A DNA stretch of 64,000 nucleotides from Spizellomyces punctatus DAOM BR117 (taxonomy: Eukaryota), in NCBI GenBank assembly GCA_000182565.2, contig KQ257457.1. The stretch is one strand, 5' to 3'. A program made the position numbers and the translations under genes. Every line of letters starts with the position of its first letter. Position 1 is the first letter of the stretch. A model generated the notes under the pieces. It searched no databases. It saw only the letters and a program-made list of their open reading frames with translations, and was not told where the DNA came from. This document shows, piece after piece, positions 9,746 to 23,605 of the stretch.

Positions 9746-9818
9746 TGCGAGATGTGAGGATCGAACTCACGACCTTGAGATTATGAGACTCACGCTCTAC
9801 CAACTGAGCCAATCTCGC
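9746..9818 (-). tRNA. tRNA-Met (CAT), elongator type, intronless
   Basis: Reverse complement GCGAGATTGGCTCAGTTGGTAGAGCGTGAGTCTCATAATCTCAAGGTCGTGAGTTCGATCCTCACATCTCGCA folds as a cloverleaf with a CAT anticodon, a G1-C72 pair and a TTCGA T-loop. Confidence 0.96.
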
Positions 9819-10471: not shown

Positions 10472-10544
10472 TGCGAGATGTGAGGATCGAACTCACGACC
10501 TTGAGATTATGAGACTCACGCTCTACCGACTGAGCCAATCTCGC
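10472..10544 (-). tRNA. tRNA-Met (CAT), second copy
   Basis: Identical to the 9746-9818 copy except for one D-loop base (CAGTCGG vs CAGTTGG). Confidence 0.96.
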
Positions 10545-18029: not shown

Positions 18030-18683
18030 TCAGCTGACTGTTCCGTTGAGAATACTCTTGACCCTTACAAAGCCCTTATCCGTCTGTAGCGGGACGCCCT
18101 TGTACGTTGCTACACCCTCCCCATTTGTGCCCAAATGTGGTTGACAGGCTTCAAAAACCTTACGTTTGGGATTCAAGACCGTGTCTATGGGACCTTGTGG
18201 AAATCCTTGTGCATAGACCTTGTCGCCAGGCAGACTTGTAGAAGGCGGCTCGAGCACTTCGACCAATGTCGTATTGAAAGCTGCCAACAGCATCCCTTCT
18301 GATCGAATGCCGCGCAGCTTGGCTGGTTTCATGTTACACACCACGACCACATGTTTATTCTAATAACCGCGCGGTATTATAAACAAAAAGCCGCGTATTC
18401 AAATCATCCAAAGGCATACCTCTAGATCCTCCACAGCATAAAATCGCTTTAGACCACTTACAATCGTCCTCTCCTTATCCCCTGTATCGATCGTCTCGAC
18501 ATACAGCGCATCTGCGGAAGGATGTGAGGCGACGGAAAGGATTTTACCTACGCGCAGGTCCAGGCGATGAAATTGATCTTCTGCAGGTGTGGATGGGGGA
18601 GGAGGCGTTGAAAAATGTCTAGTGCGCGGGAGAGTATTGCGGGAAATATGTGTGCAGACATGTCTTGCACGCTGTAGGATCAT
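18030..18683 (-). CDS. Stand-alone EMAP II/Arc1p-type OB-fold tRNA-binding domain protein with a probable mitochondrial presequence (intron 18360-18419)
   Basis: LDLRVGKILSVASHPSADALYVETIDTG..RTIVSGL|NKHVVVVCNMKPAKLRGIRSEGMLLAA...LNPKRKVFE. The N-terminus is Arg-rich and acid-free, ending RHFST. Confidence 0.88.
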
Positions 18684-19111: not shown

Positions 19112-19596
19112 TCATCGCTTCATCTCTTTCAGCTAGAAACGCAAAATGCAACCATATGATTGCCTTAGTAAGACCAGCAGATCCGCCAAGGAGGGTCCGA
19201 GACGAACCTTTTTCATGATTTCCTTCTCCTTGGCAGTGTTTGCTCTCCTCTTGAAATACTTCAAATTGTTCGCCACCTTTTCTGAACCATCGTCCTCCTC
19301 TTCTAATTGAACTCTGTGACGTAAATCCTCCTTTCTCTTCTTCTCGTCAAGTTCTCGCCGCTTCGCTTCTCGCTTTAGTCTCTCATTCTTCCGAAAGTTT
19401 TCTTTATTGAGGACTGGTTTTTTGATACGCTTTGAGGAATCGCTGATACCTGTGTCAGGCGTACTTCGTTTTGGTTTTTGCGAGGTTTGTTTGAGCAGTA
19501 TATCCTGCCATAGTAAGTGGTGTTAGAGGAATGTGTGCAACAAAACTTACAAAACAGCCTCCATACCAAGGCTTTTCTTGTCAGTTTTTGTGACAT
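19112..19596 (-). CDS. Small basic protein, AROS/RPS19BP1-like (3 exons; not recovered by the ORF track)
   Basis: Spliced translation MSQKLTRKAL|DILLKQTSQKPKRSTPDTGISDSSKRIKKPVLNKENFRKNERLKREAKRRELDEKKRKEDLRHRVQLEEEDDGSEKVANNLKYFKRRANTAKEKEIMKK|LKEMKR*. GT-AG introns at ~19504-19566 and ~19133-19207. Confidence 0.65.
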
Positions 19597-19916
19597 TTGG
19601 GCCAAGTTCTAGAGTGACCTATCGGTAGTGTGTACTAATGTAAATCGTGGAAGCTCGTCTCAGTTGTTCTGTTGTTCTATTAGCCGATCTGTGGTAAGTC
19701 GCAGGAAGTAGAAGATGTCGACAATGCTTTACTTCTACTGTGCTCGACATTTGGACGCTTTCGCCCAAGGCCATACCGTAACCATAGCAACCACGAGGCA
19801 TCCGAACCTCAACCGAGCATGGAAAGCCTCTGCAAAGCTCCTCGCATATAACATTCACGATAAGCAGCATATCGACAGCGTCATTTCAGCAAGGCAAAAT
19901 GCTTTGATAGAAGCCG

Positions 19917-20058
19917 AAAAAAAAAAGTGGGGAAGCTCGGTCACTAGAGACCATTACAAATCGAAGATTTGACTTAAGGAAGCGACCGACGGAGCCCACT
20001 TCTGCGGTATCGAACCCATGGCCAACTGAGGGGCTGACCACTGCGACACAACACCACA
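19917..20058 (-). ncRNA. Putative Pol III structured small RNA, copy 1
   Basis: A-box TGTCGCAGTGG, B-box GGTTCGATACC, 3' stem GTGGG..TCGGTCGC/GTGACCGA..CCCAC, T10 terminator. Confidence 0.6.
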
Positions 20059-20195
20059 CGATTTGAGCTGCAAACAAACAAATGTCAACGTTGAGTAGGT
20101 CCATCTAATGGCTGTTTTGCTCGAAGGCAGAGACAACACTGGCTCACGAGCAGATTCGCGATGGGCCATCACTCCTGGCACTAGTAAGTTTGGCC

Positions 20196-20333
20196 AAAAA
20201 GTGGGAAAGCTCGGTCCCTGTGCTGACCTAATCTGAGGATTTGATAAGAAGGAAGCGACCGACGGAGCCCACTGATGCGGGTGTCGAACCCATGGCCAAC
20301 TGAGGGGCTGACCACTGCGACACAACACCACCC
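20196..20333 (-). ncRNA. Putative Pol III structured small RNA, copy 2
   Basis: A-box TGTCGCAGTGG, B-box GGTTCGACACC, 3' stem GTGGG..TCGGTC/GACCGA..CCCAC, T5 terminator. Confidence 0.6.
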
Positions 20334-20504
20334 AAATTGAAGCTACAAACATTAACCTATTAACGTTTAATCATCCATGTGTCATCCAATAGCAGTTTTC
20401 CTCTAGCTATCGTTAAAAGAAACCTTGAACGCAGAGACAACATTGGATGAGTGGCTCATGAGCGGATGTGCATAGGTCACTCACGCCTGGCAGTAGCCTT
20501 GCCC

Positions 20505-20630
20505 AAAAAGTGGGTGAGTTCAATCACTCAGAGTCAATCGTGAGTGAAGGAAGCGACTGACGGGGCCCACTCGGATTCGAACGCGTGATCAATCGCCTGG
20601 TAAACGCAACTGACCACTACGACACGAGTC
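20505..20630 (-). ncRNA. Putative Pol III structured small RNA, copy 3 (divergent)
   Basis: A-box TGTCGTAGTGG, B-box GTTCGAATCC, 3' stem GTGGG..TCAGTCGC/GTGATTGA..CCCAC, T5 terminator. Confidence 0.55.
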
Positions 20631-21443
20631 ACTGATATAATTTTTCTTATTGCGAGCATATTATGCGCATATTCCTCGGCCCATGCAGGCTATTGTTCTT
20701 CTCACGACGACAGCCCGCAAGGAGGACTACCGGTATGCGAAAGTTATCCGATTGAATACTAAAGAATTCAAAGGCTGGATGCTGAGCACTTACAATCTCT
20801 TCAGACTTTCAACTGGCGGGATGCATTGCAATTCTGGGGATGAACGATGAAGAGAGTCGATTCCAATAGCGCAGAATGCAGCTGGCCATGTCTTTATGCA
20901 ATTCCCTTGCGGCCATCCACATACCTGCAGCCACACCCACAAAAAACAACTGCAAAACGAAAGGCAAACGCCCAAAGAAACAAGTATCTGCAAAGTGTTC
21001 AATATGATGTAAGCGATCAGACATGGGTGATACAGATGAGTCATTATTTCCCAGACAACCCACAACACATCAACCGACCGGAAAGCCCGCACATTTCCAT
21101 TAATGGTGACGGCTGTCCAAATTGGCACATTTTGACCACTTTTTCCATCTTACTTTTTCGAACGCTCCTTGCACGCTTCCCGACTCACTAAAGGACACAA
21201 GTAGAGAGCACACCACAAGTTATTGTCATTCAAGAAGACTCGTTTCGCTTTCTATCGCTGACGGAATTGGCACTCGGTAAACGTGAAAAGCCGTTCGCCC
21301 ATCCTTGCCGAAAAAAGGACAAACTGCTGCATATCCTATCACCTCTCCCGCATGCAGCGGGCATGTTGCCGCGTCTGTCGCTATTCGATTAGGGGTGCTG
21401 TCTTCACATATTCACCGAGAGTTTGGAAGACTTTACCAAAGAC

Positions 21444-23605
21444 ATGTCTTTCAAACTCAACTGGCCGACATTTTCGGCAGAGTTTATGGAGAAGGCACAG
21501 CAGCAACTGACAATTGCGCTGAACAAGGGGGAGAAGCCTTCCAACATTGTGGGAAAAATAGAGGTCAAAGAATTGAACATGGGAACAAAGGTACAATACG
21601 TTGTGCTGTCACTTCTCAATTATGGTTAACCTATATTGGGGTTTGTAGCCGCCAGACTTGGAAATTCTGGAAATTGGCGAACTGCAGGAAGAACGATTTC
21701 GTGGAATCTTTAAAATGGCTTATATTGGGGATGCTTACGTGGAGCTGCAAACCAAAGTGCAGGTTGGTACTATTATTGCGGCGGAAGTGCTTGTAGAAAG
21801 TAAAATGACTTTTGACGATCATCTAGGCAAACCCTCTTCGAACACCGACTACAACTCTCAAAATAAATAACAGAGGTGGCATTCTTGCTGCGAATTGGCC
21901 GCTAGTCGTACCGATGCGTCTTCGCATCAGTAACCTTGTGTTGCGGGGAATCATCGTATTGGTCGTCGACAAGCACAAGGGGGTGACGCTTGTATTTAAA
22001 AATGACCCCTTGGAAAAGGTCGATGTCAATTCGACTTTCGACAACATTCCAAACATTCGACGTTTCTTGCAGCTGCAGATCGAGACGCAGTTGAGAAAAA
22101 TGTTTCAGGAAGATCTACCGGCTCTGATACACAATCTATCCTTGGTTTATTTGCAACAAAAGAATGGCGGATCGACTAACAGTGGACATGCGTGGAATCC
22201 ATCGAATCAGTCGCCCGCGGAAAACACCCCGAAAGGGCACGTGGAGCACGACGAAATATCCTCCCTGGATAGCGGATATCACAGCGATGAAACTATGGTC
22301 GGAAAGCAACCTGAACCACGGACTCAGCGTGAAAAGTGGATTGGAAATGATCCGATAGATGATGACGAGGATGACGATGCTTGGGTTCATGGATACATTT
22401 TCTATCGCAATCTCAGTGCCTCATCGGGAGCCGCAGACTATGGACTTAAAAATCTCTCAGTTCCGAAACCACTGCTCAGTGACCGTGTTGTTTCACGCTC
22501 GCGGACAGTTGAACGGCCAAATTGGGAATCCATGTCCCATATTGCATTCTCCGATCCGGGACCATATTCTACACCACGCCGGAGATACTCCAACCTCTCC
22601 GATCATTCCCTTCATTCCGCAGGCTCTGTATCTAGTCTACGCCACCCTTACATGTCATACGAGTCTTTCTCCACACGGCCACGACTACCCCCTCGAGCGC
22701 CGAGCTCAGCATCCCTCGACGTCGATTTCGGTCGAGGCTGGACTGGCGACCATTACGATACCCGATCGCTCAAACCCTCTTTCTCTTCGCATTCAGAGAG
22801 CGATTCACGATGGCCCAGCACGGACCTCAATACGCAAGACGATCACAATTCCAATTCCCGCGGACCGGTACAGTTTCCCAGCCGTATTGTTCTGAAACCT
22901 ACGGACAATCCCCTCGCAGCGCATCTGGCTAACCTGATGAACTCAAATCACACCATATCACCGCATACTCAAAGTGAGGATATCGAACATCTAGCATTTC
23001 GTGCGCATCCTGGAAAGAACACAGCTAAGGAGAATGGACTGGTTCCTGCTGGTGGTCCTGGAAGTTCTCAGACTGCATCGAAACGCTCATGGCGAAGTCG
23101 CAATGTCATGAAAATCAAACTTCCTCCGGGGGTGGTTGTTCCCCAGGCGTTGATATCTCCTGGGCTCACTGAGAGGATGTTGGAAGCTGGCTTACACCCG
23201 CAAACTGGAGCGCCCTTATCTGAAGGTTGTCAGCGAGAGACGAGATGGAGGAAGGCAACATCAGTGAAGAGTGACGGGGCAGCTGAAGCTGACGAACGAC
23301 GACGCAATACAGGCATAGTACGAACCATGTCAACAGGTGGATTGTCTCGCATGGCTCTCGATAGCCAACAGCATCCCGGTCGGCGACCCTCTCACTCCTC
23401 ACAGCCCGTCCTTTCCCAGCCTCCATCTCAACGACCACCCTTACCGGGCGACGTCCGATTGAAGCATCGTCGCCCATCATCCCGAAGTACTGTTAGCGAG
23501 GACCGAGTATCAATTGATCGACATCGCGTCAGAGGCAGACGAGTGTCTTCGAGCGCGAGCCAGCATGAAGGAATAATACTCGAGGAACCTGGAAGCAGCT
23601 TTTGA
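21444..23605 (+). CDS. MDM34: ERMES complex subunit Mdm34 (SMP domain + long disordered tail; introns ~21590-21648, ~21763-21826)
   Basis: [11 protein letters not shown]...[44 protein letters not shown]...TKVQ|ANPL...[44 protein letters not shown]. Confidence 0.95.

Follow-up and report, generated by a model that had tools for sequence, protein, structure and literature searches.

The 64,000-nucleotide (nt) stretch of DNA analysed here, hereafter the window, is one strand of contig KQ257457.1 (assembly GCA_000182565.2) from the chytrid fungus Spizellomyces punctatus DAOM BR117. Between positions 19917 and 20623 it carries an expressed trio of orphan small-RNA genes with a tRNA-type internal promoter, arranged in tandem on the minus strand, each predicted to give an RNA of about 114-127 nt plus a U tail. 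With a probability that we put at roughly one half, these are three tandem genes of a functional, orphan and lineage-restricted non-coding RNA of the RNA polymerase III (Pol III) type, with a head derived from a tRNA and an overall build like that of the rodent BC1 RNA.

Three discrete minus-strand RNAs

The array consists of three related units whose start-to-start distances, from sequence reading and alignment, are 274 and 302 nt. Unit 3 is the most diverged copy.

Unit 1: 19917-20047, minus strand; RNA from G 20047 to the CCCAC ending at 19927, then a T10 run at 19917-19926
Unit 2: 20196-20321, minus strand; RNA from G 20321 to the CCCAC ending at 20201, then a T5 run at 20196-20200
Unit 3: 20505-20623, minus strand; RNA from G 20623 to the CCCAC ending at 20510, then a T5 run at 20505-20509
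Spacer between units 2 and 1: 20048-20195, minus strand; homologous to the spacer between units 3 and 2 (20322-20504); RNA depth near zero

Everything that the first-pass annotation, a model's reading of the bare sequence, had listed for three minus-strand units is present on that strand: an A-box-like motif, a B-box-like motif, two hairpins and a run of five to ten T in each. The covariance model that it had proposed, built from the three copies, recovers just these units within the window, scoring unit 1 at 147.6, unit 2 at 135.9 and unit 3 at 104.4 bits. With filters off over the whole 64 kb it finds only the three units; no other match exceeds 15 bits, and these weaker matches are the reverse strands of the units or chance.

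Each of the three units yields a discrete RNA from the minus strand, with the predicted start at one end and the T run at the other. The evidence comes from an RNA run, X21, of raw reads carrying the same species label, about 6% of which was sampled. From this sample 126 reads map to 19400-21800, of which 94 are at least 99% alike, 20 are 95-99% alike and 12 are 90-95% alike; 117 are first mates and 9 are second mates. Depths of the first mate on the minus strand, in 81-nt bins, run as follows.

19886-19966, 3′ part of unit 1: 1.58
19967-20047, unit 1: 7.74
20048-20128, spacer: 0.26
20129-20209, spacer: 0.53
20210-20290, unit 2: 9.05
20291-20371, unit 2: 8.58
20372-20452, spacer: 0
20453-20533, 3′ part of unit 3: 1.9
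20534-20614, unit 3: 26.1, the highest of the array

Within the array, then, strand-specific reads are confined to the three units, with spacer depths of 0-0.53; the 3′ parts of the units retain depth, which at this bin resolution drops to about zero beyond the T runs, and the two bins next to unit 1 have 0.26 and 0. The transcripts that the first-pass annotation had proposed looking for are seen on all three units, in one RNA run. The strand is set by the plus-strand Mdm34 homologue upstream of the array: reads over its 5′ part are first-mate-plus (depths of 0.65, 0.21, 0.59, 0.19 and 0.41, against 0.23, 0, 0, 0 and 0 for minus), so that the first mate is sense and the unit RNAs are therefore minus-strand.

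Aligned reads begin at an equivalent base in the three copies. Three reads start at 20047, five at 20321 and four at 20623; in each case the base is the G that is third in GTGTCG, preceded by T, and second in the A box. Reads at these common starts carry about 10 nt of unaligned 5′ letters that agree poorly with one another. Unit 3 has further read starts at 20617 (4 reads), 20610 (11 reads) and 20608 (4 reads), all inside a strong hairpin, and these are probably reverse-transcription stops or fragments. Because 26 reads span position 20569, which lies inside the part of unit 3 that bears no relation to tRNA, the X21 reads are specific to the array family. At that same position, the U of GUGGG in unit 3, 3 of the 26 X21 reads have T where the plus-strand DNA has A, as against none of 11 DNA reads from chromatin immunoprecipitation (ChIP); the variant may come from a base modification, from a paralogue located elsewhere or from error.

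Internal promoter motifs and terminator

Read from the sequence, each unit has an A-box-like motif and, downstream of it, a B-box-like motif.

20038-20048, minus strand: A-box-like motif of unit 1, TGTCGCAGTGG
20312-20322, minus strand: A-box-like motif of unit 2, the same sequence as in unit 1
20614-20624, minus strand: A-box-like motif of unit 3, TGTCGTAGTGG
20006-20015, minus strand: B-box-like motif of unit 1, GTTCGATACC
20280-20289, minus strand: B-box-like motif of unit 2, GTTCGACACC
20573-20582, minus strand: B-box-like motif of unit 3, GTTCGAATCC

The A-box-like motif, TGTCGYAGTGG across the three units, fits the consensus TRGCNNAGTGG at 10 of 11 positions. A 16-mer that contains it, GTGTCGYAGTGGTCAG, has three matches at two mismatches or fewer in the 64 kb, at 20034-20049, 20308-20323 and 20610-20625, and none of 100 shuffles reaches that number. 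The B-box pattern GTTCGANNCC also has three matches in the window, all inside the array; this count by itself is unremarkable, with 32 of 100 shuffles giving three or more, and it is the placement that is informative. The 11-mer GTCGCTTCCTT is exact in all three units and has one single-mismatch match elsewhere, a total of four that 2 of 100 shuffles reach. Runs of T10, T5 and T5 directly follow CCCAC on the 3′ side in units 1, 2 and 3. Internal A and B boxes (judged against the consensus motifs) and an oligo-T terminator, the features by which a type 2 Pol III gene is recognized, are thus found together in all three units, in the layout that had been proposed for them.

From start to start, the A and B boxes lie about 33 nt apart in units 1 and 2 and about 43 nt apart in unit 3. 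The B-box motif is kept while the predicted folds share no T-arm pairing around it, which suggests that it acts as a promoter element in the DNA. The two boxes, together with the tRNA-like spacing of about 43 nt in unit 3, also indicate that the head of the units probably derives from a tRNA gene. Upstream of the A box, units 1 and 2 have sequence at the place where a tRNA gene would carry its 5′ acceptor strand.

A two-hairpin fold

From the read-defined 5′ end to CCCAC, units 1, 2 and 3 fold with energies of -44.8, -40.1 and -40.2 kcal/mol and z-scores of -3.65, -2.30 and -2.76; respectively 0, 3 and 2 of 200 shuffles fold equally well. Each RNA is predicted to form two hairpins, with the 5′ end in one and the 3′ end in the other, so that the two ends are not paired together.

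20018-20041, minus strand: hairpin 1 of unit 1, 9 base pairs (bp), GUGGUCAGC/GUUGGCCAU, with a 6-nt loop
20292-20315, minus strand: hairpin 1 of unit 2, 9 bp
20585-20617, minus strand: hairpin 1 of unit 3, 12 bp with a 9-nt loop
19927-19999, minus strand: hairpin 2 of unit 1
20201-20272, minus strand: hairpin 2 of unit 2
20510-20570, minus strand: hairpin 2 of unit 3

In hairpin 1 the 3′ part of the A box supplies the 5′ arm, and its partner strand comes from the nucleotides immediately preceding the B box. The copies have nine pairs of this stem in common, and each copy can form all of them; one pair differs on both sides (C-G to U-A) and three differ on one side. Hairpin 2 is closed by an invariant GUGGG/CCCAC stem, beyond which lie a pyrimidine-rich 5x5 internal loop, an inner stem of 9 bp and an apical loop. 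The inner stem, which ends in GUCGCUUCCUU, shows one change on both sides (G-C to A-U) and one on a single side. The apical loop opens with an invariant UUCCUU, and the apical part is otherwise poorly conserved, with matches at 12 of 28 aligned columns between units 1 and 2 and 6 of 16 between units 2 and 3.

The stems that the first-pass annotation had drawn by eye do fold in this way: the 9-bp stem of copies 1 and 2, the 12-bp stem of copy 3, the GUGGG/CCCAC stem, the internal loop and the G-C to A-U change in the inner stem. The outer stem that it gave copy 2, GTGTCG/CGACAC, is there in the sequence but starts 2 nt upstream of the 5′ end defined by the reads, and therefore only GUCG/CGAC lies within the RNA.

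A structural alignment of the three units holds 27 pairs, and 79 of its 81 cells are standard pairs; the exceptions are a G/G in unit 2 and a G/A in the first outer pair of unit 3. Across the 27 pairs, two have changed on both sides, one in each hairpin, and five on one side only. Sliding the partners out of register lowers pairing to 28-44%, a control to be read with the structure having been derived from the same sequences.

A model for the array RNA

Around these RNAs we infer transcription by Pol III, a tRNA origin and protein binding. A degenerate tRNA gene would form the head and would have retained its internal A and B boxes, which would recruit TFIIIC, TFIIIB and Pol III, with termination in the T5-T10 run directly past hairpin 2. 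Having lost its cloverleaf, the former tRNA head would refold as a single hairpin. The second hairpin, unrelated to the tRNA head, would join an invariant base to a fast-changing apical loop, and its conserved base, together with the 3′ oligo-U, would serve as a platform for protein. The oligo-U 3′ end of Pol III transcripts is the usual binding site of La. The RNA might then act as BC1, Y or vault RNAs do, as a component of a small ribonucleoprotein (RNP) or as a protein decoy. More tentatively, the array may represent an undescribed class of functional Pol III small RNA in early-diverging fungi, in which a tRNA-derived promoter head is joined to a conserved protein-binding hairpin whose apical loop evolves freely, and the RNA serves as an RNP scaffold or decoy; we hold this wider proposal to be plausible rather than probable.

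Constraint or drift

The most serious competitor of a functional RNA is that the units are transcribed relics. A tRNA gene would have lost its cloverleaf, gained a hairpin and a T run and been duplicated in tandem together with its spacer; survival of the internal promoter would keep the copies transcribed, and the resulting RNA would have no function and would drift nearly neutrally. We consider this unlikely, although a good part of the comparative evidence fits it, and the observations in this and the following two paragraphs weigh against a functional RNA. In a whole-unit MAFFT alignment of units 3 and 2, the spacers are identical at 117 of 157 positions (74.5%) and the RNAs at 72 of 103 (70%, with 29 gap columns), so that the RNA is no better kept than the spacer (Fisher p 0.48). 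The first-pass annotation had taken the spacers to be more diverged than the cores and had read this as selection on the RNA; that argument fails, because the spacers of units 3 and 2 are as similar to each other as the RNAs are. The base of hairpin 2, at 35 of 43, is not significantly above the spacer rate (P 0.20). The longest identical run in the RNA is 12 nt, and a run of that length is expected about once by chance in the spacer at approximately 25% divergence; one is seen. It lies in a spacer block (20120-20142 against 20424-20446) that is 87% identical between the two untranscribed spacers. Many indels in the loops, and the G/G mismatch in the inner stem of unit 2, are likewise what drift would leave. 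Global identity with free end gaps was uninformative, as shuffles gave similar values.

Nor did the searches of metagenome and viral contigs yield a homologue, as would be expected of a relic. In the metagenome scan the core pattern of hairpin 2 had no matches. The pattern for the 5′ domain matched at least 117 loci, which by eye are unrelated to the array, and the covariance model, run on 100 of these at least 117 loci, gave a best E-value of 0.52, on an unrelated stretch of the first of them, L001. The viral contigs gave no matches. By eye, most of the loci L001-L117 contain one repeated element, in which a tRNA-like head precedes about 130 nt of conserved sequence; it resembles a short interspersed element (SINE) of some animal host. 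This element and bacterial tRNAs account for nearly all of the loci.

The covariation control is weak, with 71 of 500 column shuffles reaching the observed value, because the alignment has just three rows and these are paralogues. The RNA evidence amounts to 126 reads from a single run, and its strand calibration to a handful of reads. Two other RNA runs, X23 and X11 (both as contigs), gave nothing on 19400-21800, although such blanks can be false. Transcription of type 2 genes starts about 10-20 bp upstream of the A box, unlike the 5′ end seen here, which lies inside the A box and so implies removal of a leader or an unusual selection of the start. Finally, the ChIP run considered below has an unspecified target and no input control.

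Four observations speak against mere relics. First, the A box, the B box and the T run are kept in all three copies: over the 24 positions of the A box (11), the B box (8) and T5 there is at most one change, against a background of 0.255 (P 0.008). Second, substitutions in the stems preserve pairing. Between units 1 and 3, nine substitutions at 54 paired positions break only one of 27 pairs (P 0.029 by simulation), and the two pairs that have changed on both sides belong here too. Third, paired columns are better kept than unpaired ones, being identical at 44 of 54 as against 28 of 49 (p 0.0097). Finally, all three copies are expressed, and the most diverged has the greatest depth. Together, these results are modest evidence that transcription and base pairing are under constraint. 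In the first 84 alignment columns, 77 of which are identical, units 1 and 2 resemble each other far more than their upstream spacers do, but selection explains this closeness no better than a more recent duplication or gene conversion would.

Other explanations

The selected function could instead reside in the DNA, with three TFIIIC/Pol III sites forming a chromatin boundary or a nucleosome-free spacer between the neighbouring genes for a tRNA_bind-domain protein and for Mdm34. In yeasts, insulator activity is known for tRNA genes and for extra-TFIIIC sites, the array sits in a 2.7 kb intergenic gap between these divergent genes (tRNA_bind on the minus strand, Mdm34 on the plus strand), and the promoter and terminator motifs, not the body of the RNA, show the clearest conservation. 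In the ChIP run X22 (4466 reads), moreover, the per-strand coverage of 50-88 in the flanks drops to 2.2-6.4 between 19967 and 20533, in a trough of about 800 bp (19805-20695) that spans the whole array including its spacers. This trough fits a nucleosome-poor, occupied locus but, in a run whose target is unspecified, is only suggestive. A boundary requires only B boxes, yet the T run and the stems are kept as well, and a role of the DNA is in any case compatible with the RNA also being functional. We give a function of the DNA a low probability.

Lower still is our estimate for a Pol III precursor, in which the head drives transcription and is then cut off, leaving hairpin 2 or smaller RNAs as the mature product. 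There are precedents: gammaherpesvirus 68, plants and Neurospora have tRNA-linked precursors of microRNAs or small nucleolar RNAs (snoRNAs), and yeast SNR52 and RPR1 have leader promoters. The order of parts in the array, a promoter-bearing head, a separate hairpin and a T run, would suit such a scheme, and the 5′ end inside the A box suggests some 5′ processing. The reads, however, start in the head and continue into hairpin 2, as do the 26 that span 20569, and depth is greatest over the head. Recognition by RNase P or RNase Z is not expected, as the head is not a cloverleaf; hairpin 2 (5 bp, a 5x5 loop and 9 bp) is a poor Dicer substrate; and no C/D or H/ACA boxes were seen by eye.

That the units are copies or source genes of a tRNA-derived SINE is very improbable: although they have a tRNA-derived head with A and B boxes, and the BC1 gene shows that such a gene can be a SINE master gene (PMC4923876), the copies are in tandem with homologous spacers, which argues for duplication of DNA rather than retroposition, each has its own T run and no A tail or simple-repeat tail, no target-site duplications were seen, the 64 kb holds no further copies, and only 5 of the 4466 X22 DNA reads (at least 90% alike) fit two places, with depth lowest on the units and no pile-up there, contrary to what a dispersed repeat of high copy number and at least 90% identity would lead one to expect.

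Tests against known RNA classes

The first-pass annotation had held that the units are not tRNAs and that they match no known family, and both statements are borne out. ARAGORN calls no gene in 19900-20650, and its calls in the window are two tRNA-Met genes elsewhere. At the gathering score, Rfam has no match in the array and yields the same two tRNA-Met genes only. No tRNA or tRNA-Sec model matches, and a single hairpin lies between the boxes. In E-value mode over 19800-20750, Rfam gives four chance-level matches (E 0.33-4.1), each scoring less than half its cut-off.

SNORD94: 16.7 bits against a cut-off of 60; the best match, E 0.33
SorY: 15.9 bits against a cut-off of 111
Vault (RF00006): 15.5 bits against a cut-off of 34; E 3, hairpin 2 only
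sR23: 11.7 bits against a cut-off of 45

At E-values up to 10, Rfam gives nothing for tRNA, tRNA-Sec, 5S, U6, signal recognition particle (SRP) RNA, RNase P/MRP or Y RNA. Class by class, a tRNA is rejected for want of a cloverleaf in ARAGORN, Rfam and the folds. A vault RNA does not fit a sub-threshold score and ends that lie in separate hairpins. A Y RNA or stem-bulge RNA (sbRNA) is rejected because Rfam gives no such match up to E 10 and the 5′ and 3′ ends do not form a common stem. For C/D and H/ACA snoRNAs there are sub-threshold C/D matches only (SNORD94 and sR23), and by eye no boxes stand at the required places. tRNA-Sec, the SRP Alu domain, U6/U6atac and telomerase RNA have no Rfam support. 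Protein-coding potential was rejected as well: Pfam has no match for a minus-strand open reading frame (ORF) at 19954-20352 (132 amino acids) or for four other small ORFs within or next to the array, and the spacers are untranscribed. Fanzor omega-RNAs of the same species are 88-90 nt long, carry a guide of 14-15 nt after the scaffold and lie at transposon ends (PMC10432273). In the array the T run directly follows the scaffold, with no guide between.

Comparison with known systems

The closest architecture is that of BC1. BC1, a Pol III transcript of narrow lineage, has a 5′ domain that derives from tRNA-Ala, is refolded as a stem-loop and contains boxes A and B; a second stem-loop forms its 3′ domain (PMC4923876). 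The array RNA shows the same plan, a stem-loop head with A and B boxes and then a 3′ stem-loop, with the tRNA origin of its head suggested by the boxes and their spacing, and like rodent BC1, which is derived from tRNA-Ala and ID elements, it probably has a narrow range. It differs from BC1 in having no sequence similarity to it and no central A-rich domain, in being fungal, in its three tandem copies and in that no retroposed progeny are seen.

Other likenesses are more partial. With vault RNAs the array RNA would share Pol III transcription, a length of about 90-140 nt, A and B boxes, an oligo-T terminator and genes that are often clustered; in contrast to them, it has both boxes within its first 45 nt or so and 5′ and 3′ ends that are not paired with each other. 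A review states that MVP genes were not found in fungi (PMC7916137). Hairpin 2 also recalls the general plan of Y RNAs and nematode stem-bulge RNAs, with its stem, internal loop, second stem, pyrimidine-rich loop and 3′ oligo-U. In Y RNAs, however, the terminal stem is formed by the paired 5′ and 3′ ends and contains a conserved Ro-binding helix, and the genes use upstream promoters, whereas the ends of the array RNA sit in different hairpins and its promoter motifs are internal. tRNA-derived SINEs similarly have a tRNA-related head carrying the internal promoter, but the array shows tandem duplication that includes the spacers, a terminator for each copy, no tails and no sign of high copy number. 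The 4.5SH and 4.5SI RNAs are comparable as small Pol III-type RNAs of narrow distribution, although they are unrelated to the array RNA in sequence and lineage; 4.5SH genes are tandemly organised. Both are Pol III RNAs of about 100 nt from rodents, narrowly distributed and of no known function (PMC3440375).

We know of few Pol III small RNAs outside animals beyond tRNA, 5S, U6, SRP and RNase P/MRP RNAs, and to our knowledge vault, Y and BC1-type RNAs are not known in fungi. Our searches of the literature on Spizellomyces and on chytrid small or Pol III RNAs turned up no description of the array RNA and no chytrid Pol III small RNA beyond the housekeeping set. If the array is an expressed orphan family, it would capture a tRNA gene turning into a new structured RNA, by the route taken by BC1 but in a distant lineage. 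If it is a relic, it would be a clean example of internal-promoter genes that stay transcribed long after the tRNA function has been lost. S. punctatus has been cultured for small-RNA sequencing, with a library treated with polyphosphatase and PNK and so able to capture Pol III 5′ ends (PMC10432273), and the array RNA is thus open to direct examination.

Genomic setting

The two genes that flank the array point away from each other.

18030-18683, minus strand: tRNA_bind-domain gene in two exons (PF01588, E 1e-12 and 1e-5), directly downstream of the array
21444 onward and 21914-23605, plus strand: homologue of Mdm34 of ERMES, upstream of the array and pointing away from it

The presence of a tRNA_bind gene next to the array may be coincidental. 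The best match of the Mdm34 ORF at 21914-23605 is 93% identical and comes from Spizellomyces sp. 'palustris'. The protein search returned no S. punctatus entry for Mdm34 within the length range searched, and the annotated model of this species may have a different length or be missing. A protein of Spizellomyces punctatus DAOM BR117 matches one ORF of the window, for an OPT transporter, at 100% identity.

Two near-identical tRNA-Met(CAT) genes, at 9746-9818 and 10472-10544, lie on the minus strand like the array and are 726 bp apart, scoring 68.8 bits each. A TATAAAA stands about 26-32 nt upstream of the tRNA start in the copy ending at 10544. With this pair and the array both present, tandem duplication of Pol III-type genes recurs in the region. 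In the flanks of the array, minus-strand RNA reads occur at low depth (0.3-2.3) at 20777-21262 and 19643-19723, outside any recognised gene; they may stem from divergent promoters or from the 5′ untranslated region of the tRNA_bind gene.

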